From an uncultured Verrucomicrobiae bacterium (GTDB lineage Bacteria; Verrucomicrobiota; Verrucomicrobiia; Limisphaerales; JAFGQR01): a stretch of 64,000 nucleotides of DNA. Under the pieces are notes generated by a model that was not told the origin of the DNA, did no database searches, and saw only the letters and a program-made list of their open reading frames with translations. A program made the position numbers and the translations under genes. The stretch is from positions 96,001 to 160,000 of the forward strand of contig CAWBHS010000072.1 in assembly GCA_963788655.1 (NCBI GenBank), written 5' to 3'. This document shows positions 17,060 to 29,536 of the stretch, in pieces (the first letter of the stretch is position 1; every line of letters begins with the position of its first letter).

Positions 17060-17169
17060 AGGTCGAATTTTTATCATTAATGGTTCGAAGTAACAAGTGA
17101 CTTTGTGCGGCGGGGTGTGCCTGTCCATGTTTGCCCATCCGAAGTGCCCTGGGGCATAAATACGTTGAC

Positions 17170-17304
17170 GTGGCGCCGACTTCCAGCCTGCCGTATCGCG
17201 GAGTTCCAATCCGCTGGCCGCACGCCCACCGTGGTCCACGCCGAATTCTTCCACGCGCTGCCGACTGGAAGTCGGCGAGACAGCAGGTGGGAAACCGGCG
17301 CTAC
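17170..17304. repeat. REP-like doublet
   Basis: GTGGCGCCGACTTCCAGCCTGC... and GCCGACTGGAAGTCGGCGAGACAGCAGGTGGGAAACCGGCGCTAC (GTAG end on - strand) between divergent MFS and PKS. Confidence 0.65.
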
Positions 17305-17455
17305 GAGACGTCGCCCGGCAATACGTCACCGAACTTACGCCCCGAACCACTCAGTGACGATCTTTCAGCCGCGCCCGATGCTCATCCATGAGCCCCCGGA
17401 CAGCGCTTCCGCGTTAAACGATGGCGGAGCGACGCCTCCTGCGCTATGGTCTGTC

Positions 17456-18514
17456 ATGTTTGTGAAAGGAATCGGCACCGCAGTTCCCCCGTCGCACTAC
17501 ACGCAAGCCGAATGTTGGGAAGCGTTGCGAGCCGCGCCTGAATACGCGGAGTTGACCACCCGTTCCCGGGCCCTCCTGCGGAAAGTGCTCTTGGGCGACA
17601 ATGGCATCGAGCGACGTTACCTGGCACTGGATCCATTGGCTGAGGCGTTTTGCTTGACGCCTGATGCGATGCACCATCGCTTTCTCAAGCATGCGCCGAC
17701 ACTCGCGGCGAAGGCCGCCGAGCGGGCGCTGCGGCAGGCCGGTGTCGCGACACAAGAAATCGATGCCCTCATCATCAGCACCTGCACCGGGTATTTGTGT
17801 CCGGGGCTCACGAGTTACGTCAGCGAGCGTCTCGGATTGCGCAGCGACACGCTGGGATTGGATTTGGTGGGACAGGGGTGCGGCGCGGCGTTGCCGAACT
17901 TGCGAACGGCCGCCGCGTTGTTGGCGGCCGGCAATTGCGCGAACGCGTTGTGCGTCTGTGTGGAGGTGTGCAGCGCGGCGTTCTATGTGGACGATGATCC
18001 CGGCGTGCTGGTCAGCGCCTGCCTCTTCGGTGACGGCGCGGCGGCGGTGGTGGTGTCGGGGCAACCATCGGGGGTTGGACGGCGGATTGCGTGGAGGGAC
18101 GCGGAGTCCCTGCTGAGCCCGGCGGATCGCGACGGCCTGCGCTTCGAACAACGCAATGGCATGCTGCGGAACATTCTGACGCGCCAAGTGCCGGCCCTGG
18201 CGGCCCGGCATGCCGAGACGGTGCTGAGCACGGCGTTGGCGCGCGCACATGTCAACCGGACCGAACTCACCGGTTGGATCCTGCACGCCGCCGGCCGGGA
18301 CGTGCTACTGGCGCTGCGGGAACGGTGGGGATTGGCCAACGAGGATTTGCGCTGGAGTGCGGCAGTGTTGCGCGAACACGGCAACATGAGCAGCGCCAGC
18401 GTGCTGTTCGTGCTCGCGGCGGCACTGACGGCCGGCGCCCCGGGCGGCTGGTGGTGGATGTCGTCCTTTGGCGCCGGCTTCACCTGCCATGGCGCCTTGT
18501 GGGAAGTCGAGTAA
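17456..18514 (+). CDS. Type III polyketide synthase (chalcone/stilbene synthase family)
   Basis: Catalytic Cys (GQGCG), His (WILHAAG), Asn (HGNMSS); LFGDGAAA; FGAGF. Confidence 0.92.
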   Translation: MFVKGIGTAVPPSHYTQAECWEALRAAPEYAELTTRSRALLRKVLLGDNGIERRYLALDPLAEAFCLTPDAMHHRFLKHAPTLAAKAAERALRQAGVATQEIDALIISTCTGYLCPGLTSYVSERLGLRSDTLGLDLVGQGCGAALPNLRTAAALLAAGNCANALCVCVEVCSAAFYVDDDPGVLVSACLFGDGAAAVVVSGQPSGVGRRIAWRDAESLLSPADRDGLRFEQRNGMLRNILTRQVPALAARHAETVLSTALARAHVNRTELTGWILHAAGRDVLLALRERWGLANEDLRWSAAVLREHGNMSSASVLFVLAAALTAGAPGGWWWMSSFGAGFTCHGALWEVE

Positions 18515-18555
18515 ACCGCGCATCACCCTGCGAAAATCGTTGATTGTTTTTACGC

Positions 18556-19260
18556 ATGACCTCTCGTTTCGTTCAACCCGAATTACTGGATGAACTCCCC
18601 CCCACCAGTCCCGACGCTTTGCGATCACGGCGTGACATCAACCGCATCAACGCCTGGCTGGGCCACGCGCGTTACTTCGCGCGCGCGCTGCGGGAATCCT
18701 CGCGGGCGGCGCCGCTTCGGCGAGTGGCGGACCTTGGTGGTGGCGACGGCACGTTTTTACTCCGCGTTGCCCGGCGCCTTGACGGTCTCGAACCCCCGAA
18801 GGAAGTGACCTTGGTGGATACGCACCCGATGGTTTCCGCCGCCACCCGCGATGCGTTGCGTGCCCGGGGGTGGTCACTGCATTGCGTCCGCGCGAACGTG
18901 CTTGATTGGATTCGTAACGAAGGGGCTTCGAATTATGACATCCTGCTGGCCAACCTGTTCCTGCACCATTGCTCGGCCGAACAGCTCCGGGCTCTCTTCA
19001 CCGCCGCGGCGCAACGCACCCGACGGTTGGTTGCGGGTGAACCCGCGCGGCGTCCTGGTGCGCGGCTCGGCGCCTCGCTGCTCTGGCTGCTTGGCTGCAA
19101 TCACGTCACGCGTCACGACGCCCGCGTCAGCATCTGCGCCGGTTTTCGGGGACGCGAACTCTCGACATTGTGGCCTGGCGACGGTGAGTGGCAGTTGCAA
19201 GAAAAGCCCAGCGGATTGTTCAGCCACTTCTTTTATGCCTGGAGGGCTGACGCGAAATAA
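18556..19260 (+). CDS. Class I SAM-dependent methyltransferase
   Basis: ELLDEL, VADLGGGDG SAM motif, NLFLHH, TRHDA..S...GF. Confidence 0.85.
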   Translation: MTSRFVQPELLDELPPTSPDALRSRRDINRINAWLGHARYFARALRESSRAAPLRRVADLGGGDGTFLLRVARRLDGLEPPKEVTLVDTHPMVSAATRDALRARGWSLHCVRANVLDWIRNEGASNYDILLANLFLHHCSAEQLRALFTAAAQRTRRLVAGEPARRPGARLGASLLWLLGCNHVTRHDARVSICAGFRGRELSTLWPGDGEWQLQEKPSGLFSHFFYAWRADAK

Positions 19261-19281
19261 GTGCCATGCGATGAACGTGCC

Positions 19282-20322
19282 ATGACCTCGCGCCAACCCA
19301 TCACGATCGTCGGCGGCGGACTGGCTGGGCTTGCCTTGGGTCTGGCATTGCGCCGGCGCCAGGTGCCGGTCACGCTGTGGGAAGCCGGACATTATCCGCG
19401 GCACCGCGTCTGTGGCGAATTCATCAATGGCCGGGGGGTGCAAACCCTTGAGCGACTGGGGATGCTTGAACTAGTATTGCAAGCTGGCGCCCATTGGGCT
19501 CGCGAGGTTGCCTTCTTCGCCACCGACGAATTGCAACTCAAGCGTTCGCTCCCGCGACCGGCTTTGTGTGTGTCGCGTTACGTATTGGATGATTTGTTGG
19601 CGCGCGAGTTTCGCCGGTCGGGCGGCGAGCTGCTGGAGGGCCGGCGGTGGACGGCGAGTACGTCCGGGAACGGTATTGTCCGGGCCAATGGCCGGCGACT
19701 CCAAGCGGTGGTGCGCGGGTGGCGTTGGCTGGCGCTGAAGGTGCATGTTGGCGAGGTTCCACTTGCCGCTGACCTGGAAATGCATTTGTCGTCCGACGGC
19801 TACGCTGGTTTGTCGCGCGCCAACGGCGCCATCAATGTCTGCGGATTGTTTCGGAGCCGCGGACCCTGGCCTCAACTGCGTGAGCATTGGCGCGCGTTCT
19901 TGTTTGGGCCGCCGGATTCCCCGCGGCACTGTCGGCTGAGCCAGGCCGAGTTGGACGACAATTCGTTTTGTTCGATTGCTGGATTGTCCGTGGAACCGCG
20001 GCTGGCCATCGATGACGATTCGTTGGCAGTGGGCGATGCGTTGACGATGATTCCGCCCATCACCGGCAACGGCATGTCCATGGCCTTCGAATCGGCTGAG
20101 CTCGCCGCCCACGCGCTTGAACCATATTGCGAGGGAGAGCAATCCTGGGCGTCCGCGCGCCAGCGGTATGCCCGCCGATGCCGTCAACAATTTGGGTCGC
20201 GACTGGTGGCCGCGGCGCTGTTGCACCGGGTCATGTTCGCTCGCGGGGCGCGACACTTCCTGGCGGCATTTCTGAAACACTGCCCGTGGATGTGGCGGAT
20301 CGGCTTTCAATTAACGCGATAA
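19282..20322 (+). CDS. FAD-dependent oxidoreductase/monooxygenase
   Basis: IVGGGLAG, YPRHRVCGEF, VGDA..MIPPITGNGMSMA. Confidence 0.85.
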   Translation: MTSRQPITIVGGGLAGLALGLALRRRQVPVTLWEAGHYPRHRVCGEFINGRGVQTLERLGMLELVLQAGAHWAREVAFFATDELQLKRSLPRPALCVSRYVLDDLLAREFRRSGGELLEGRRWTASTSGNGIVRANGRRLQAVVRGWRWLALKVHVGEVPLAADLEMHLSSDGYAGLSRANGAINVCGLFRSRGPWPQLREHWRAFLFGPPDSPRHCRLSQAELDDNSFCSIAGLSVEPRLAIDDDSLAVGDALTMIPPITGNGMSMAFESAELAAHALEPYCEGEQSWASARQRYARRCRQQFGSRLVAAALLHRVMFARGARHFLAAFLKHCPWMWRIGFQLTR

Positions 20323-20578: not shown

Positions 20579-21550
20579 ATGATTACCTCGCGCCGTACCT
20601 TTCTGCGATACTGCTCGCTCAGCGCCGCCGCGCTCGGACTGAACACGGGCAAGTTGGGGCTGTTGCAAAACGCCCTGGCCAATCCCAATGGCCCCTCGGT
20701 GATCTGGTTGATTGGCAGTGCCTGCACCGGATGTTCCGTCTCTTTTCTCAACCGCATTTCCGACAAGGTGGGCGAACCCGCCACAGTGGCCGAAGTGCTG
20801 ACCGAAGCTGTGAACCTAGTGTTCCATCCCACCATTATGGGGGCGGCGGGAGAAACCTCGGTGGCGGCCCTCAAACGAGTGTACAACAGTGGCAATTATG
20901 TATTGGTGCTGGAAGGCGCCGTGCCGACCGCCTTCGGGGGCCATCCCTGTGTGGTGTACAGTTACAACGGGGTCGAAGTGACCTTCCAACAAGCGGTTCA
21001 GGAACTGTCGGCCCGGGCCAACGCCGTGGTTTGCGTGGGGACTTGTGCGTCCTTCGGCGGCATCCCGGCTTCCGGCTCCAACCCCACGAAAGCGATGAGT
21101 GTGCGGCAACTCACCGGTCGGCCGACCATCAACATTTCCGGCTGTCCAGCGAACCCGGACTGGGTGGTTTGGGCCATCGTGCAATTAATCCTCGGCGCCC
21201 CGGTGCCGCTCGATGAAGACGGACGCCCGATTGCCATTTACAGCACGGATCATCAAGGGGCGGCGGCGGAACCGTTCATTCATGACAAATGCCCGCGCAA
21301 TCCCGGCCTGCATGGCGTCCTGGAAGCCGAAAATTTCGGTGAACAAGGCCATTGTCTGCGCTATTTGGGGTGCCGGGGTCCGTTCACTAAATCTCGCTGC
21401 GAAGCGTCCTGGAACGGCATTGGCGGGAACACCTATCCCGATCCCCACCCCGGCAACTGGTGCATCGGAGTCAATGCTCCATGCCATGGTTGCGTGGAAA
21501 AAACGTTTCCCGGTCCGCAATCGTTTTCCGAAAACTACAATCCCGAATAA
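20579..21550 (+). CDS. [NiFe] hydrogenase small subunit, Tat-exported, group-1a-like, no C-terminal membrane anchor
   Basis: SRRTFL Tat signal; proximal CTGC / GTCASFGG / SGCP; distal HDKC..CL..LGC; medial C...WC..NAPCHGC (Cys where [3Fe-4S] enzymes have Pro). Confidence 0.93.
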   Translation: MITSRRTFLRYCSLSAAALGLNTGKLGLLQNALANPNGPSVIWLIGSACTGCSVSFLNRISDKVGEPATVAEVLTEAVNLVFHPTIMGAAGETSVAALKRVYNSGNYVLVLEGAVPTAFGGHPCVVYSYNGVEVTFQQAVQELSARANAVVCVGTCASFGGIPASGSNPTKAMSVRQLTGRPTINISGCPANPDWVVWAIVQLILGAPVPLDEDGRPIAIYSTDHQGAAAEPFIHDKCPRNPGLHGVLEAENFGEQGHCLRYLGCRGPFTKSRCEASWNGIGGNTYPDPHPGNWCIGVNAPCHGCVEKTFPGPQSFSENYNPE

Positions 21551-21568
21551 CCCCCAATTGAGAATCGT

Positions 21569-23034
21569 ATGCCAGTCATCACGGCAGCCATAGATCCGAT
21601 CACCCGCATCGAGGGTCACCTCAAAATCAACGTCAAGGTCGATACGGTGAACGGCGTCCAGCAAGTGGTCGATGCCTTTGCCATCGGCACGCTGTTTCGC
21701 GGTTTCGAAAAACTGCTCGAACAGCGCGATCCGCGGGATGCCACCATCATTACCTCGCGGATATGCGGGGTTTGCCCGAACGTCGCATGCGATGGCTGCG
21801 GCGCTGACGCTCGACCAGGCCTACGGCGTGAACGGCGACACTCTGCCGCGTAGCAATTCCCGGTTGTTGCGCAACTTGGTGCATGGGGCCTGCTACATCG
21901 AATCGGCCATCTTGCACTTTTACCTGCTTTCTCTGCCCGACTTTATTCAAGGGTTGCCGATGGCGCCCTGGCTGCCGGGTTGGGACGTCGGGCGGCGATT
22001 TGATCGCGACACGCAAAATCGCCTGACCGGTCATTTCCTCGAAGCCGTTACCATGCGCCGCAACGCGCACGAAATGGGCGCCATTTATGGGGGCAAATTG
22101 CCCCATACGCCTGGTTACATCATGGGCGGGTTTACGGCGGTTTCCACCCCGGAGAACAAAACCCTCTTCGGGCAATACTTGGACCAGATCATTGCCTTCG
22201 TCGAAAACACCCACATTCCCGATGCGGAATTGCTGGCGTCCCTTTACAGCGAATATCAGACACTCGGCCGGGGCTACGGCAATCTGCTGTCCTTTGGCGT
22301 GTTTCGAATTGGATAACGGGGCCGAACCGCAATTGCTGTTGCCCCGCGGTCGGGTGGAAAACGGTGGTTCAACGGTCCAACCGGTGGACGCGGGGCAAAT
22401 CACCGAACACGTACGCTATTCCTGGTACACCGACAGCGACAACGACAAGAATCCCACGGTGGCCGATACCGTGGCGCAGTATCCGAAAGGTGATGCTTAT
22501 TCGTGGTTGAAAGCGCCCCGTTACAACGGCCTGCCACACGAGTGCGGACCGCTGGCTCGCATGACGGTTTCCGGCGAGTACACCAACGGCATTTCCGCCA
22601 TGGACCGGCATTTGGCGCGGGCGCGCGAGACGCTCAAGATTGCCAAAGCGATGCGCGATTGGCTGGCGGCGGTGACCCCCGGTCAAGGCGGTTACACGCA
22701 TCGTGATGCGCCGGCTTCGGCCACAACGGCGGGATTGACCGAAGCGCCTCGCGGCGCGCTGGGCCACTGGCTGGAGGTAGCGGATGGAAAGATCGCTAAA
22801 TACCAAGTCATCACCCCCACCTGTTGGAATGTGTCACCCAAAGACAGCGCCCAACAGCGTGGTCCACTGGAACAGGCGTTGATCGGTGTGCCGGTCAACA
22901 ACGTGGATAAACCCATCGAAGTGCTGCGGATTGTCCATTCTTTCGATCCCTGCCTGGATTGCGCGACCCATGTCACGCGCGCCGAACCCGGCGCCCAAGT
23001 GTTTGCGCTGGGTGGCCTCCCTGCCAACGTCTGA
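21569..23034 (+). CDS. [NiFe] hydrogenase large subunit (two apparent frameshifts, ~21780 and ~22303)
   Basis: IDPITRIEGH, L1 RICGVC, YSWLKAPRY, EAPRGALGHW, PTCWN, L2 DPCLDCATH plus cleavable C-terminal tail; ORFs 21569-21853, 21672-22316, 22087-23034. Confidence 0.92.
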
Positions 23035-23045
23035 ATCCGCTGACA

Positions 23046-23548
23046 TGGATGATTCGCCGCGAATCCTGATTGCCGGAGTCGGCAACGTGTTGCTAACCGA
23101 CGACGGGATTGGTGTCCACGCCGCCCGGCAATTGCAGCAGGAGGATCTCACGGGAGTGGAAGTGGTTGAAATCGGTACGGCGATCCTTCACGGGTTGCAC
23201 TTCCTGGAAGGCGCCGACCGGGTTCTGATCATCGACGCCGCACGCGGAGGACAAGCTCCCGGCACGATCTATCGGTTCGACGCGGGCGAGCCGACCTCGC
23301 CCAACCAGTTGCTTTCCGTTCACGCCGTGGGCTTGCAGGAGGCGATCCGGCTGTTGCCACCCGAAGTCCCGCCGCCGGCCATTACCGTGTTGGGCGTTGA
23401 ACCGGAATCACTCGATTGCGGAATGAATTTGTCTCCGCGACTCCAACAAGTGCTGCCGCGCGTGGTTTTCCTGGCCCAGGAAACCGTTGCGGCCTGGAGG
23501 CTGGAAGCTTCGGAAGAATTGGCCAGTTTTGCCGGAACGCTCAGATGA
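23046..23548 (+). CDS. Hydrogenase maturation endopeptidase (HyaD/HybD family)
   Basis: ILIAGVGNVLLTDDGIG, IIDA, SVH, GVEP. Confidence 0.92.
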
Positions 23549-23583
23549 ACGCTCCATTTTCGCGACAACCAAAAAGAGTTGCT

Positions 23584-26500
23584 ATGAAGAATCGCTTGAA
23601 ATTCCTGTGCGCCGCGATGTTCGGCCTGGGGCTCGTTGGAACTGCGCCCGCCGCCACCACCGACGGGTCCGTGACCTTCACCGTTACACTTTACAATGCC
23701 GGCGGCAATTATCAGCCGCGACACGTCGATGCCGTGTGGGTGACCGATGACGCCGGGAACTTCATCAAGACCCTGCGCCGCGAAGGCTCGAACTGGTCCG
23801 GCGAAGGTACTCGTCACCTCGATCAATGGCAGGCCACCCGCAATGGCTCCCAAGTTATTGACGGCTACACCGGCGCGACCACCCGGAACTACGATCCGTT
23901 CACCGTCCAATGGAATTGCCGCGATGCGAACAACACGGTGGTGCCGGATGGGGTTTACAAGTTTTTCGTCGAGACGACGGATCGGAACGGCCAGGGTCCC
24001 TGGACTCAGGGTGGGATTGCCTTCACCAAGGGACCGGCACCCCAGACGATTTTTCCTCCCGATTTGCAGTATATTAAGGGGATGCGGCTCGAATACATGC
24101 CGGCGGGGCCGCTGCCACACGATGTGGCAGTGCTGGGGATCGAGCCGCTGGTCTTTGCCAAAAGCACTTTAGCCCGTCCTTATGTGATTGTGACCAACCT
24201 CACGACCACGCCGGACAGCTTCAATCTTTCATTGAGCAACTTGACAACGGGAACACTGATCCGCAATCAGACCGTCAATCTCGCAGCCAATGCCGGCCAA
24301 AGTATTCCCATGCTATGGGTCATTTCCACCACCCCGGTCGGCACTTATCTCCTTGAGGCCAGAGCAACCCCCATCGATGGCGAAACGAGTCTGGCGGACA
24401 ATGTTTTCACCGCCGAGGTAGCCATCCGGACGCCAACGCACGATGTCGGCATTACCGGAATCACTGCATCCGGCGTAATACCTCCGGACACGCTCACCAA
24501 TATCGAAGTGACCGCCAGCAATCTTGGTGATTACGCGGAAACCTTTGCGGTGACCCTGACCGATGTAACCACCTCCATCCTGATTGGTTCCAACCTCGTT
24601 TCCGGATTGGCGGCCGGCGGCGATTCAGTGCAAACCTTTCCTTGGGATACTGCCGGTTTGGCTCCGGGCTATCACACGCTGCGCGCGTCCGCTGCTTCGG
24701 TAACAGGGGAACTCGAATTAGCGAATAACGATTTTGAGCTGATGGTGCCGGTCGCCGCCAGTGTGCAAACGGTGCGACTGGTGCCGATGCAAAGTGTCTG
24801 GCGCTATAATGACACCGGCATTGACCTCACTCAGACGCCCTGGCGGGAACTTGCTTACTACGACACATTCTGGGCGCAAGGACCGGGCCCCTTGGGCTAC
24901 GGTGAACTCAGCGGGCTGAACACGGATACCCTGCAATTCGGTCCCGATTCGGATAACAAGTATCCGACCTACTATTTCCGGCAGACCTTTAACGCCGACT
25001 TCCTGCCGCTGGAATTAACCTTGCGCTTGCGCCGCGACGACGGTGCGGTCGTGTATCTCAACGGTGAGGAAATCGCGCGCGACAATATGCCGGACGGCCT
25101 CATTGCGTTCACCAATCTGGCAACCACGACCATCAGTGGCGCCGCGGAATTGGCCTATTATTCGTTCAGCGTGCCTGCCTCCAAGGTCCGGTCGGGTGCC
25201 AACGTGCTGGCGGTGGAAGTGCATCAAAGCACTCAGGACAGCCCCGACCTTTCCTTCGATTTGGAACTCGAAGCCGTCGTTCCGCAGATCCCCGCCCAGC
25301 ACGAGGTCGCTGCGGTGCAAGTCAGCCCGGTTGCCGATGCTCTGGCTGGCGATCTGATGCCGGTCGCCGTCACCATCACCAACCAGGGCAATATCACCGA
25401 GACGGTTATCGTCATCCTCCAAGACACCACCGCCGATCAGATTTTGGGAACCCAGTCGGTGGGTGATGTGGCGCCCAACTCTGCTGCCTCTGTCCAGTTC
25501 AATTGGCAAACCCTTGGCGCCACGGCCGGCGGCCATCAACTGGCTGCCTACACCGTGGTCAATGGCGTCACCAATCTGGCCGGCACCGCGACCGCCACCG
25601 CGACGATCAGCGGAACCGGCCTCGGGGCGAATGCCGTCAATGCCCTCGGAACCATTGGCGGTCGATGCACTGCGGTGGCCACTTCCGGTAATCACCTGTT
25701 ACTGGGAGCGGGGGCCGCGCTGGAAATTTTCGATAAGTCCACGCCCACCACCCCCGTCAAACTGGCCGCGCTCCGGCTGCCCGGAGTGATTGAAGATATT
25801 GTTGTCGCCGGCTCCGAAGCGTATGTCGCCTGCGGCAATGCGGGAGTTCAGATCGTGAATATTGCCACGCCGGCCAATCCCGTGTATCGCACCACCTTTG
25901 ATTCTTCCGGCCACGCGTACGGCCTGGCGGTTAGCGGCACGTACCTGTATGTCGCCGATGGCGCCAGCGGGTTGCGGATTCTGGACATTTCCAATCCGGC
26001 CTCGCCATCGATTGCCGGCTCGTATCACACGACTGGTCCGGCCCGCGCGGTCGCGGTGTCCGGCTCGACGGCTTACGTTGTCGATTTGCAGAATGGAGTG
26101 GTCGTGCTCAACGTCTCCAGCCCGCAATCGCCCACGCTTCTGGGGGCCAGCAGTGCCTTCGATGCGGGCCAGGCCCTGGCCGTTGCCGGGGCGAATGTTT
26201 ATGTTGTGGATGGCAACCGAATGCTCCACGTCATTGACGTTTCCACACCGAATACGCCCACGGCGGTGGCCAATTTCCTGTTGAGCGCGGTTGGACAAGC
26301 GGTGACACTGGACGGTTCCGTTTTGCACGTCGCGGCCGGCAACTCCGGTTTGTTGACCGTGGATGTGTCCACGCCGTCCGCGCCCGAGGAACTCACCCCG
26401 CAGGCCACGCCGGGTGAAGCCGCCGATGTCACCTTGGATGGCGCCTCCCTTTACCTGGCCGAAGGTTTCGCTGGCTTTCAAGTCTATGATGTTTCCTCAC

Positions 26501-27780
26501 CGACCGCTCCGTCACTCCAAGGTGAATTTGCTGAAGGCGTGCGGGCGGCAGACGTGGTGGTGGCGAATGGCAAAGCTTACGTGGGAGCCGGCGAGGCGGG
26601 ATTGCAGATTTATGATTTGGCCAATCCCGCTGCACCGGTCTTGCTCAGCCGGTTCACCGAGACCGCGAACGCTCGTTGTCTGGCCCTCGCTGGCAACATG
26701 GCGTGCGTCGGTGACAGCCAGTATGGATTGAAATTGGTGGACGTGGCCGATCCGGCTCATCCCGCCTTGCTCGGGACTTTGTTGAGCGCCGACTTGAGTT
26801 ACCTCCGCAGCATTGCCGCCGTCGGCACCCAGGTGATTGTCACGGACGGACGGAAGATTGGATTGGTGGATGCCTCCGATGCCGCGCATCCGGTGCTGAG
26901 TGATACTTACGATGCGCCTGCCTTTGCCTACGCGGTTGCGGTCGCCGGCTCGCACGCTTACGCCGCTTGTGGCAACGCCGGTTTGTTGATTCTCAACGTC
27001 GGGGCCAACAGTCTTTCCTTGGCCGGTTCGTACGACACTCCGGGTTTGGCCCAGGGAGTGGCCGTTGCCGGAACCACGGCGTTTGTGGCGGACGGAGGCA
27101 GCGGTTGGCTGACGTTGGATGTTACTGATCCGGCGGCGCCGGCGTTGCTCCAATCCTCGTCCAGTGAAGGACCGGTCCGCGACATTGCGGTTTCCGGCGT
27201 TCTGGCCGCCCTCGGCAGCGGGGCCAATTCGGCGCAACTGCTGGATGTCACCACTCCGGTCACGCCGGTGCCACAACAAGCCTTTGGACCGCTGGTGCAT
27301 GCCTTGCGGGTGGCTCTGAATGGTCAAGTAACCCTGACCGCCGAAGACGAAGCCGGTGTTGCCATCCTGGGCATGGTTGCCAATCCCGAGGATACCGACC
27401 ACGACGGTTTGCCCGACGACTGGGAAATGCTCATCGTCAACGCGAATCCCAATGATGCCATCACCGGTATTGAAGACGTGCTGCCGACCGATGACTTCGA
27501 CGGCGACTCGCTTTCCAATTACGCCGAATACCTCGCCGGCACATCTGCCACTGACCCAAGTTCCAAATTCATGGTGCAGGTCAACGGCGGCATTGGTGGA
27601 ACCGGCGCCAATCTGCAGTGGGACAGTGTTGCGGGTCGGATTTACACCATTTACCGGACCACCAACTTGGCGGATGGCTTCACCGAGTTGGACAACCATA
27701 TCCCCGCTACCCCGCCGCGGAACACCTATCCGCTCAGCGCCGGCGGCGGCACCGCGTTTTACATCATCAGCGTACGGTAA
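23584..27780 (+). CDS. Large secreted protein: DUF2271 (flavinylation motif) + CARDB/Ig-like repeats + jelly-roll domain + LVIVD beta-propeller repeats + Ca-binding/C-terminal module
   Basis: Sec signal MKNRLKFLCAAMFGLGLVGTAPA; AVWVTD..GNFIKTL...W......VIDGYTGAT...WN..D....VPDG.Y (DUF2271); three HDV/HEV-initiated Ig-like units; RDDGAVVYLNG..NVLAVEVHQ; repeated Y.A.G..GL.I.D.S.P..P; DTDHDGLPDDWE and DFDGDSLSNYAEY.AGT. Confidence 0.85.
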   Translation: MKNRLKFLCAAMFGLGLVGTAPAATTDGSVTFTVTLYNAGGNYQPRHVDAVWVTDDAGNFIKTLRREGSNWSGEGTRHLDQWQATRNGSQVIDGYTGATTRNYDPFTVQWNCRDANNTVVPDGVYKFFVETTDRNGQGPWTQGGIAFTKGPAPQTIFPPDLQYIKGMRLEYMPAGPLPHDVAVLGIEPLVFAKSTLARPYVIVTNLTTTPDSFNLSLSNLTTGTLIRNQTVNLAANAGQSIPMLWVISTTPVGTYLLEARATPIDGETSLADNVFTAEVAIRTPTHDVGITGITASGVIPPDTLTNIEVTASNLGDYAETFAVTLTDVTTSILIGSNLVSGLAAGGDSVQTFPWDTAGLAPGYHTLRASAASVTGELELANNDFELMVPVAASVQTVRLVPMQSVWRYNDTGIDLTQTPWRELAYYDTFWAQGPGPLGYGELSGLNTDTLQFGPDSDNKYPTYYFRQTFNADFLPLELTLRLRRDDGAVVYLNGEEIARDNMPDGLIAFTNLATTTISGAAELAYYSFSVPASKVRSGANVLAVEVHQSTQDSPDLSFDLELEAVVPQIPAQHEVAAVQVSPVADALAGDLMPVAVTITNQGNITETVIVILQDTTADQILGTQSVGDVAPNSAASVQFNWQTLGATAGGHQLAAYTVVNGVTNLAGTATATATISGTGLGANAVNALGTIGGRCTAVATSGNHLLLGAGAALEIFDKSTPTTPVKLAALRLPGVIEDIVVAGSEAYVACGNAGVQIVNIATPANPVYRTTFDSSGHAYGLAVSGTYLYVADGASGLRILDISNPASPSIAGSYHTTGPARAVAVSGSTAYVVDLQNGVVVLNVSSPQSPTLLGASSAFDAGQALAVAGANVYVVDGNRMLHVIDVSTPNTPTAVANFLLSAVGQAVTLDGSVLHVAAGNSGLLTVDVSTPSAPEELTPQATPGEAADVTLDGASLYLAEGFAGFQVYDVSSPTAPSLQGEFAEGVRAADVVVANGKAYVGAGEAGLQIYDLANPAAPVLLSRFTETANARCLALAGNMACVGDSQYGLKLVDVADPAHPALLGTLLSADLSYLRSIAAVGTQVIVTDGRKIGLVDASDAAHPVLSDTYDAPAFAYAVAVAGSHAYAACGNAGLLILNVGANSLSLAGSYDTPGLAQGVAVAGTTAFVADGGSGWLTLDVTDPAAPALLQSSSSEGPVRDIAVSGVLAALGSGANSAQLLDVTTPVTPVPQQAFGPLVHALRVALNGQVTLTAEDEAGVAILGMVANPEDTDHDGLPDDWEMLIVNANPNDAITGIEDVLPTDDFDGDSLSNYAEYLAGTSATDPSSKFMVQVNGGIGGTGANLQWDSVAGRIYTIYRTTNLADGFTELDNHIPATPPRNTYPLSAGGGTAFYIISVR

Positions 27781-28125: not shown

Positions 28126-29536
28126 ATGAAGATTTGGGCGGCGTTATTCTTGACACTGATTACGTTCGGTAGGGCAGGGGAGTCCACGCCCGCGTTGTCC
28201 ATGCCGGCCTAAAAAGGTTTTTATCCTGCCCATTCGTCAGGACATCGATCCGCCGTTGCTTTACTTGGTTCGCCGCGGGGTGAAGGAAGCAATGGAAGCG
28301 CATGCTGGCTTGTTGGTCGTTGATATGGAAACCAACGGTGGGCGTTTGGATACTTGCCGGGAGATCATGGCCATCCTCGGTCAGTTCCCGGGTGAGACGG
28401 TCACTTACGTGAACAAAGATGCTTTTTCGGCCGGTGCGTTCATCGCCGTGGCGACCCAGCACATTTATATGGCGCCGGGGAGCGTGATCGGCGCCGCTGC
28501 CCCGATCATGTTAAGTCCTGGCGGCGAAGGCGTCATGAATGTGCCCGAGACGTACGAGAAGAAAATGATTTCCGCCGTGCGCGCCATGATCCGGACCGTG
28601 GCCGAGAAGAACGGGTATAACGTCGATGTCCTCGAAGCCATGATTGACAAGGACAAGGGCCTGACCGTTGACGGCCAGGTTATCCTCAAAGAAGGCAATT
28701 TGCTCACTCTGACCAACACCGAGGCCGAGAAGGAATACGGCAAACCACCCAAACCGCTGCTCTCTTCCGGCACGGTGGCCAGCCTGGACAAACTGCTCGA
28801 CAAGCTTGGCTACGCGAACGCCGAACGCCATGAGATCAAGACGACCGGCATGGAGGACGTGGGATTCTGGCTCAACAAGATTGCGCCGATCTTGCTCATC
28901 ATCGGCATTGTTGGGTTCTATGTCGAATTCAAGACGCCGGGCTTTGGTATCGCCGGGATCATCGGGATCATCGCCCTGGCGCTTTACTTTTCCGGCAGCT
29001 ACCTGGCGGGGCTTTCCGGGATGGAATGGGTGCTGGTGTTTGGGCTCGGCATCGTGCTGGTGATCCTGGAGTTGTTCGTTTTTCCAGGCACCATTGCGTT
29101 GGGCCTGGGTGGGGCGGCCTTGATGTTGGTGGCCATCATCATGGCCGGCGTGGACATTTATCCGGGCGAGCCAACCATTCCGTCACTGCCGAAGTTCACG
29201 AATTCAATGCACAATTTGACCATCGCCATCGTCTTCTCGCTGATTATTATCCTGATCCTGAGTCGGCTCCTGCCGCGCACCCCGCTCTACAAGGTGCTCG
29301 TCTCGGAAGGTGCCAGCGGCGTGCGCTCCGAAGCACAGCAACAGCAGGAGCGTAGCGTATTGCTCGGCCAAGTCGGCGTCGCCGTCTCCAACCTTCGCCC
29401 CGGGGGCAAAGGGCAGTTCGGAGACCAAATTATCGACGTGATTTCGCAGGGCGATCTGGTGGACAAAGGCACGCGCGTTCGCATAATCGACTTCAGTGCC
29501 CGCGAGGCGATCGTCGAGGTCGTCTCGGAAGGGTGA
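28126..29536 (+). CDS. nfeD: NfeD-family membrane-bound ClpP-like serine protease (frameshift near 28210)
   Basis: Signal MKIWAALFLTLITFG at 28126, then +1 frame KKVFILPI..DI; T.GG, AFSAGAFIA, IGAAAP, EFKTPGFG, C-terminal OB fold LRPGGK. Confidence 0.85.

Follow-up and report, generated by a model that had tools for sequence, protein, structure and literature searches.

The stretch of DNA considered here (64,000 nucleotides of contig CAWBHS010000072.1, C72 below, in assembly GCA_963788655.1 of an uncultured Verrucomicrobiae bacterium; hereafter the window) carries an operon in which the genes for the two subunits of a [NiFe] hydrogenase and for a maturation protease are followed by that of a giant secreted protein with a predicted attachment site for flavin mononucleotide (FMN) (Table 1). 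The host genome amounts to 8.96 Mb, with a completeness of 86% and a contamination of 5.6%. An earlier note, made from the letters of the window alone, had described four tightly packed genes on one strand. Open reading frames (ORFs) and family matches place the small subunit, the protease and the giant where it had them, and all four genes are real, although the large subunit is not a single ORF; the packing was likewise borne out by the gaps of 18 and 35 nt and by the ATGA overlap at 23545-23548, with only the middle gap being 10 nt rather than about 11. No cytochrome family matched any gene of the operon, as the same note had stated. A family scan of the operon genes and the scanned flanks gave no PepSY-like transmembrane component, and no apbE gene lies beside the operon in the window. 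A promoter scan returned 0 promoters, together with six terminator-like sites (9.5 being expected by chance), none of them at the ends of the operon.

Table 1. Features of the hydrogenase operon, with positions counted from the first letter of the window.
Feature	Position	Strand	Remarks
[NiFe] hydrogenase small subunit	20579..21550	+	323 aa; Oxidored_q6 and NiFe_hyd_SSU_C
[NiFe] hydrogenase large subunit, group 1a-like	21569..23034	+	L2 motif FDPCLDCATH; three frames as assembled
Hydrogenase maturation protease, HycI/HybD superfamily	23045..23548	+	HycI match
Giant secreted protein	23584..27780	+	1398 aa from ATG at 23584, equal length in protein database; alternative ATG at 23545
Sec-type signal peptide of giant	23584..23655	+	by eye: basic N-terminus, hydrophobic core, APA-A cleavage site
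DUF2271 domain of giant	23656..24102	+	Ig/FlgD-like beta-sandwich in AlphaFold model, pLDDT (per-residue model confidence) 88.8
ApbE flavinylation motif DGYTGAT	23860..23880	+	final Thr is the predicted FMN site
Stalk of giant	24109..25614	+	three CARDB-like Ig domains and one unassigned beta-sandwich; boundaries approximate
LVIVD repeats of giant	25642..27378	+	about 14 blades at 42-aa spacing; two propellers inferred
TSP3-like calcium-loop segment and C-terminal beta-sandwich of about 70 aa, uncatalogued	27379..27780	+	

Judged by its sequence, the hydrogenase appears to be a soluble enzyme of group-1a type, exported by twin-arginine translocation (Tat); it belongs to a distinct clade of group-1a-like enzymes. 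The small subunit begins with S-R-R-T-F-L (RRxF is retained in 7/7 aligned orthologues; the Pfam model TAT_signal gave no match to the window protein) and, with a 19-residue hydropathy maximum of 0.26, has no C-terminal transmembrane helix, both as claimed previously; the outgroup rows of the alignment do have such an anchor. Ligands for three iron-sulfur clusters are present; the medial cluster has the pair W-C in every row of the clade and its sisters, as opposed to W-P in 6/6 outgroup rows. Cysteine instead of proline at this cluster gives three [4Fe-4S] clusters, a feature of group 1a. Small subunits of the clade that has DUF2271 giants carry two inserted loops close to the ligands of the distal and medial clusters, which are absent or of a different form in the sister rows and which could provide a docking surface. 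Among solved structures, those nearest to the large subunit are periplasmic [NiFeSe] enzymes (365 bits, against 253 for the next class), and the nearest NCBIfam models are of the NiFeSe/1a type, an intact relative scoring 512.6 against a cut-off of 600; HydDB lists the [NiFeSe] enzymes within group 1a (PMC5037454, Table 1). A selenocysteine enzyme was considered and rejected, the codon in the window being TGC and the residue Cys in all 119 homologues with the L2 motif. The nickel motifs L1 (RICGVCPxxH) and L2 (DPCxDCxxH) each occur in 119/120 homologues, DPCLDCATH being a near-constant signature of the large subunits of a clade with no fewer than 120 sequence clusters (identity of 60% or above).

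The giant begins, as the earlier note had proposed, with a DUF2271 domain (29.9 bits, or 33.8 in a second scan, against a cut-off of 27.3). The LVIVD repeats scored 214.7 bits, and CARDB at 22.6 fell marginally below its cut-off of 22.7. Neither a CxxCH motif nor a strongly hydrophobic segment was found in the protein, and ESM Atlas held no match for it as a whole. The DUF2271 model gave no Foldseek match with E ≤0.001, the best being a C2 domain (Z 7.7, root-mean-square deviation (rmsd) 3.1, 104 residues aligned). Giants of this kind span 1400-2100 aa and include carbohydrate-binding-type modules among their parts.

DUF2271 domains are flavinylated by ApbE at [S/T]GA[S/T], and replacement of the Thr by Ala abolishes the modification (Meheust et al. 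2021, PMC8238504); the seven-residue form of the ApbE motif is given as D-x-x-[S/T]-G-A-[S/T] (PMC12052999). The DGYTGAT sequence of the giant lies at the very position reported before. By itself the motif would be weak evidence, since it is matched 54 times in the stop-to-stop ORFs of the genome, mostly in spurious frames, but the copy in the window occupies the conserved DUF2271 site. At this site the Asp and the final Thr are invariant in 26/26 aligned domains (median pairwise identity 44%), and a 27th, too distant for the alignment set, agrees (27/27). Of 18 relative loci in which the giant is complete and the sequence continues beyond it, 14 have apbE as the very next gene, and the genomes of the other four carry apbE elsewhere; 5/5 tested genomes without a visible adjacent apbE carry the gene at another place. 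Given this linkage and the invariant residues, covalent attachment of FMN by ApbE to the Thr of DGYTGAT is very likely. The window genome, in which the earlier note had suggested a search for apbE, holds three such genes, all in trans, of which the one on contig C81 groups with the operon type (49-54% identity) and probably serves the giant. No FMN_bind or RnfD/NqrB genes were found in this 86% complete genome, so its ApbE proteins have few other known clients. A secreted-looking FGE-sulfatase-like protein (L024:6890-8029, G000:C66) may be a further client, as DGVSGAT stands close to its C-terminus. A standalone secreted DUF2271 protein of about 200 aa with the motif DGITGAT is encoded about 50 kb upstream of the operon (L016:9648-10238, G000:C72), next to the gene of an OPT oligopeptide transporter; no apbE adjoins it.

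Conservation of the gene order, a further check named in the earlier note, was found among relatives, which add apbE as a fifth gene. A genome scan yielded 18 loci, of which the five close ones (70-73% identity) are ordered small subunit, large subunit, protease, giant and apbE, and the 13 distant ones do not have that order. In a metagenome scan of 12 loci, the giant lies downstream in seven and four end earlier (in L066, one of these, apbE precedes the small subunit). The last, L059, runs from a fragment of a clade large subunit into unrelated DNA and would be the one possible exception to the linkage; it is probably a chimeric contig, since it equals L058 at 99.9% over 891 nt and then diverges, L058 going on into the protease. 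The flanks of the operon vary among relatives, as judged by eye, and a plasmid search found nothing.

Co-occurrence was examined in one sample of 401 genomes from the order and another of 401 from the phylum. A large-subunit match of E 1e-100 or better was obtained in 15/401 genomes of the order, in ten of them at 67% identity or more. The DUF2271 profile matched 24/401, and the ten of these with a giant or a contig-cut ORF are the same ten genomes with the clade hydrogenase, at the same place; the other 14 have short proteins only (172-756 aa). The phylum sample added nine genomes with the clade hydrogenase, all with the giant alongside, which brings the total to 19 genomes in 15 families. 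No LVIVD-type giant was seen away from a clade hydrogenase in either sample. A quick tree was built from 42 large subunits, with the Shimodaira-Hasegawa-like approximate likelihood ratio test (SH-aLRT) as its only measure of support; it omits the broken gene of the window, partial genes and duplicates (L055, L061, L063, L103 and the short search loci). In this tree the 24 different full-length sequences whose genes are followed by a DUF2271 giant all fall on a single branch (SH-aLRT 100). On these comparisons of sequence and gene order, the operon is a real, conserved five-gene module built from known parts.

Variants of the arrangement were also noted. Two tandem giants, the second with a different C-terminus, stand behind one hydrogenase at L126:6670-17424, and the operon at L118 has no protease gene. 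The long DUF2271 ORF of one genome of the phylum sample, G597, is a different protein of 2166 aa with 20 Big_9 repeats and no flavin motif, which by eye ends in a similar C-terminal tail. It belongs to a PepSY-type cluster (L183:3912-14973, G597:C1) with apbE, a ferredoxin/FNR and PepSY-like membrane protein, a 168-aa DUF2271 protein with DAVTGAT and a DUF5777 outer-membrane barrel; this cluster has the look of an entire flavin chain spanning the envelope.

The large subunit of the window is spread over three frames (21569-, 21672-/21765- and 22087-/22294-23034), with single extra bases (+1) at about 21779, cutting the L1 nickel motif, and at about 22301-22305. The large subunits of full-length relatives are single ORFs of 466-487 aa. 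A recent pseudogene in this organism, whatever the function of the system, would account for both frameshifts, the one within L1 included, and for the loss of apbE next to the operon, and two frameshifts in a gene of this length have a chance of only about 4% under a Poisson model at the mean background rate. Frameshifts nevertheless cluster in this assembly: of 128 non-overlapping control genes, queried with proteins from other genomes, 23 carry at least one and 11 at least two, and hypD, the hoxF/hoxU region and the adjacent nfeD are broken as well. Identities of the large subunit to five relatives at the three codon positions (0.76-0.81, 0.85-0.89 and 0.46-0.51) lie within or near the range among intact relatives, and the 4.2-kb reading frame of the giant is open. 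One DNA sequencing run contained 8% of the sequence words, with contigs that gave no coverage of the large subunit, and no RNA run containing them was found. Because 11/128 control genes carry two or more frameshifts, those of the large subunit can with good confidence be put down to assembly, so that a pseudogene is rather unlikely and the operon is probably intact in the organism. The functional argument is built on relatives with an intact large subunit.

As for the location of the giant, its terminal domain of about 70 aa, modelled as a six-stranded sandwich, is common to 50 proteins of the genome after one profile iteration, many of them very large, and in 48/50 it lies no more than 15 residues from the stop. 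No Pfam or NCBIfam model matched it, Por_Secre_tail and CHU_C being found in 0/17 tails; a fold search gave no Z ≥8 (best Z 6.2, rmsd 3.5, 71 aligned), and ESM Atlas matched the tail only to unnamed Verrucomicrobiota clusters. A home-made heuristic predicted signal peptides in 17/36 tail proteins and in 1434/2941 background proteins and thus did not discriminate. Elsewhere, members of the same DUF2271 subfamily bear type IX export tails or a dockerin, or occur in multi-copy forms; 33/152 scanned proteins of the wider family show such fusions or multi-copy forms, including a three-DUF2271 version of the giant. The tail and these export-tail fusions favour a placement of the flavin domain at the cell surface. 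Proteins with two to four DUF2271 domains (P0126, P0128-P0132), their motifs mostly intact and some with the Verrucomicrobiota tail, are candidate multi-flavin wires.

The following mechanism is proposed. The Hyp machinery of the host and the operon protease would mature the large subunit, after which the dimer would be exported by Tat, as is known for the family; the giant would be exported by Sec and receive its FMN on the DGYTGAT Thr from ApbE. Upon oxidation of H2, electrons would pass through the iron-sulfur chain to the FMN, which would replace cytochrome c3, and the stalk, propellers and tail would keep the flavin at the outer envelope or outside it to reduce Fe(III), humic quinones or other outside acceptors. 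That the FMN is the electron acceptor of the hydrogenase, as the earlier note had suggested, is likely and is the best-supported reading of the gene context from which it is inferred. If it is, a route outwards to extracellular acceptors is somewhat favoured. Since no charge would be moved across the inner membrane, the likely benefit would be an H2 sink or mineral reduction rather than direct respiration, the sink being an outlet for H2 from the cell's own cytoplasmic hydrogenases. Such enzymes occur in all tested operon genomes, which fits this role: a group-3-type cytoplasmic NiFe hydrogenase is present in 9/9 other operon genomes of the order against 36/121 in the background, that of the window genome lying by eye in a hoxEFUYH-like cluster, and an [FeFe] hydrogenase is present in 9/9 operon genomes outside the order, a figure that stands without a background rate. 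No [FeFe] hydrogenase was found in the window genome. The H2/H+ potential is -414 mV, and a flavin at -184 mV would be downhill from H2. The latter value was measured on a multi-FMN ApbE substrate (PMC12052999). A complex prediction for the small subunit and the DUF2271 domain, both supplied as alignments, scored 0.00 and is uninformative either way. The whole reading, namely a dedicated haem-free FMN partner passing electrons outwards, is tentative and is assigned a probability of about 0.42.

Several observations weigh against it. The flavin motif is strict in the window and in 20/27 domains overall, six of the other domains having S for G and one relative a degenerate DGTAGST; and, as assembled, the window's large subunit is broken. 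The operon encodes no outer-membrane barrel and Tat export ends in the periplasm, so for an outward route the hydrogenase would have to be co-exported, or a conduit supplied in trans. Elsewhere in the genome there are 21 ORFs with at least three CxxCH motifs and five cytochrome-b561-type matches over cut-off, on account of which the redox partner might instead be encoded in trans. The co-occurrence with cytoplasmic NiFe hydrogenases is confounded, because an operon without hyp genes needs a host that has Hyp proteins, and because kin are not independent. Lastly, some sister loci fill the slot of the giant with non-redox proteins (see below), and thus the slot may be one for a scaffold. Rnf/Nqr was separately considered as a general partner and rejected, RnfD/NqrB being present in only 7/18 operon genomes.

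The alternative that survives best keeps the FMN domain as redox partner and sends the electrons inwards, from a periplasmic giant to membrane cytochromes or quinone encoded elsewhere, in ordinary H2 respiration where a flavin replaces cytochrome c3. It poses no problem of topology and conserves energy; candidates exist in the genome, among them a fusion of multihaem c and b cytochromes on contig C97. HydDB has group 1a as an electron input for anaerobic respiration (PMC5037454, Table 1), and swaps of a flavin for a cytochrome are described for other respiratory enzymes (PMC8238504). It would, however, leave unexplained a carrier of 1400-2100 aa with a stalk, propellers, carbohydrate-binding-type modules and a tail shared by 49 other proteins, when the genome already has the standalone DUF2271 protein described above, and is held to be unlikely.

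Slightly less probable still is that the giant serves mainly as a scaffold or adhesin for the hydrogenase, or is just co-regulated with it, the FMN acting in another reaction and the hydrogenase making direct use of a cytochrome or solid surface. Non-redox parts make up about 90% of the giant. Among 13 sister-clade loci (50-55% identity), DUF2271 and apbE are each found in 0/13, and in five an unrelated large secreted Ig-stalk protein with neither a haem (CxxCH) nor a DUF2271 site occupies the slot: three have a beta-propeller, MBG_2 and P-domain protein and two an FGE-sulfatase and Big_9 protein. In the remaining eight, no such gene follows directly, one locus being cut by the contig end. The propeller proteins end the sister operons (L111:4983-8438, L112:6817-10029 and L113:10592-13300), and the sulfatase proteins lie between the large subunit and the protease (L131:11390-13654 and L132:7490-9478). 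Exported hydrogenases of this lineage therefore tend to adjoin big surface-type proteins, redox-active or not. Against a scaffold stand the retention of apbE in the operon at 14/18 loci, the invariant flavin-site residues and the clade-specific loops of the small subunit near its distal and medial clusters.

[NiFeSe] hydrogenases, the nearest solved relatives, are good H2 producers, which would suit a module run in reverse, with electrons from reduced minerals, humics or partner cells passing via FMN to make H2, which would diffuse inwards to the cytoplasmic hydrogenases. This is improbable: despite the precedent of the secreted, surface-anchored NiFe corrosion enzyme of Methanococcus (PMC11452385) and the presence of cytoplasmic H2-using enzymes, a covalent FMN at around -0.2 V, as measured in one example, would be ill suited to reduce protons unless H2 is very low.

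A bolder form of the preferred reading, with electrons passing from hydrogenase to FMN and outwards, would have the folded hydrogenase itself cross the outer membrane and sit on the giant at the cell surface, supplied with H2 from the cytoplasmic Hox or [FeFe] enzymes, which would diffuse out through both membranes without help. Though doubtful, it would, if true, amount to haem-free extracellular electron transfer that dispenses with a porin-cytochrome conduit, H2 being the wire through the envelope and the surface enzyme passing electrons via FMN to minerals, humics or partner cells.

Around the operon, the window carries genes for a type III polyketide synthase, a methyltransferase and an FAD-dependent oxidoreductase directly upstream (17105-20322), which are not beside the operon in the relatives inspected. 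Downstream, the signal-peptide segment of nfeD (28127-29536) is not in frame with the remainder of the gene, another probable assembly indel.

Automatic annotation would class the members of this clade as ordinary respiratory uptake enzymes. In the literature searched, no hydrogenase with a DUF2271, ApbE or LVIVD partner was described, although the large cluster tables of PMC8238504, which fell outside the search, might list one; the word "hydrogenase" occurs 0 times in the main text of that paper. The module of hydrogenase, DUF2271 giant and apbE is thus apparently undescribed and, as far as the search reaches, would be the first hydrogenase with an ApbE-flavinylated partner, extending the swap of flavin for cytochrome to H2 metabolism. 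Should the flavin face outwards, fermenting Verrucomicrobiota could link the disposal of H2 to the reduction of iron or humics in a manner missed by cytochrome-based screens.

Several known systems come close to parts of the module. The tail resembles that of type IX cargo (Por_Secre_tail, Bacteroidota) in that many large secreted proteins end in such a small beta-sandwich; DUF2271 proteins of other lineages carry Por_Secre_tail itself, whereas the Verrucomicrobiota tail is unmatched by the family models and its role in export is putative. FohAB, encoded on the MIC island of Methanococcus maripaludis (PMC11452385), is comparable in its Tat export, its proposed hold on surface proteins and the use of H2 as an envelope carrier; it is likened here by description rather than by sequence, and differs in belonging to an archaeon without an outer membrane, in evolving H2 and in having no flavoprotein partner. 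With the ApbE-flavinylated DUF2271 systems of the PepSY-like kind (PMC8238504), the operon shares the motif at the conserved site and an apbE gene in the cluster, but neither a PepSY-like nor any other membrane electron-transfer protein is encoded in it, nor is DUF4198, the DUF2271 domain instead heading a stalk-and-propeller protein of 1400-2100 aa whose partner would be a hydrogenase. The closest likeness for the enzyme itself is to the HysAB-type group 1a hydrogenases of Desulfovibrio (PDB 5JSU and 1CC1), which are the best PDB matches and share the soluble twin-arginine small subunit, the W-C pair and the adjacent protease. Unlike these, the present enzyme has Cys in place of selenocysteine, and the DPCLDCATH signature, and its operon is devoid of cytochrome c3 or b genes, its neighbours being the DUF2271 giant and, in relatives, apbE.

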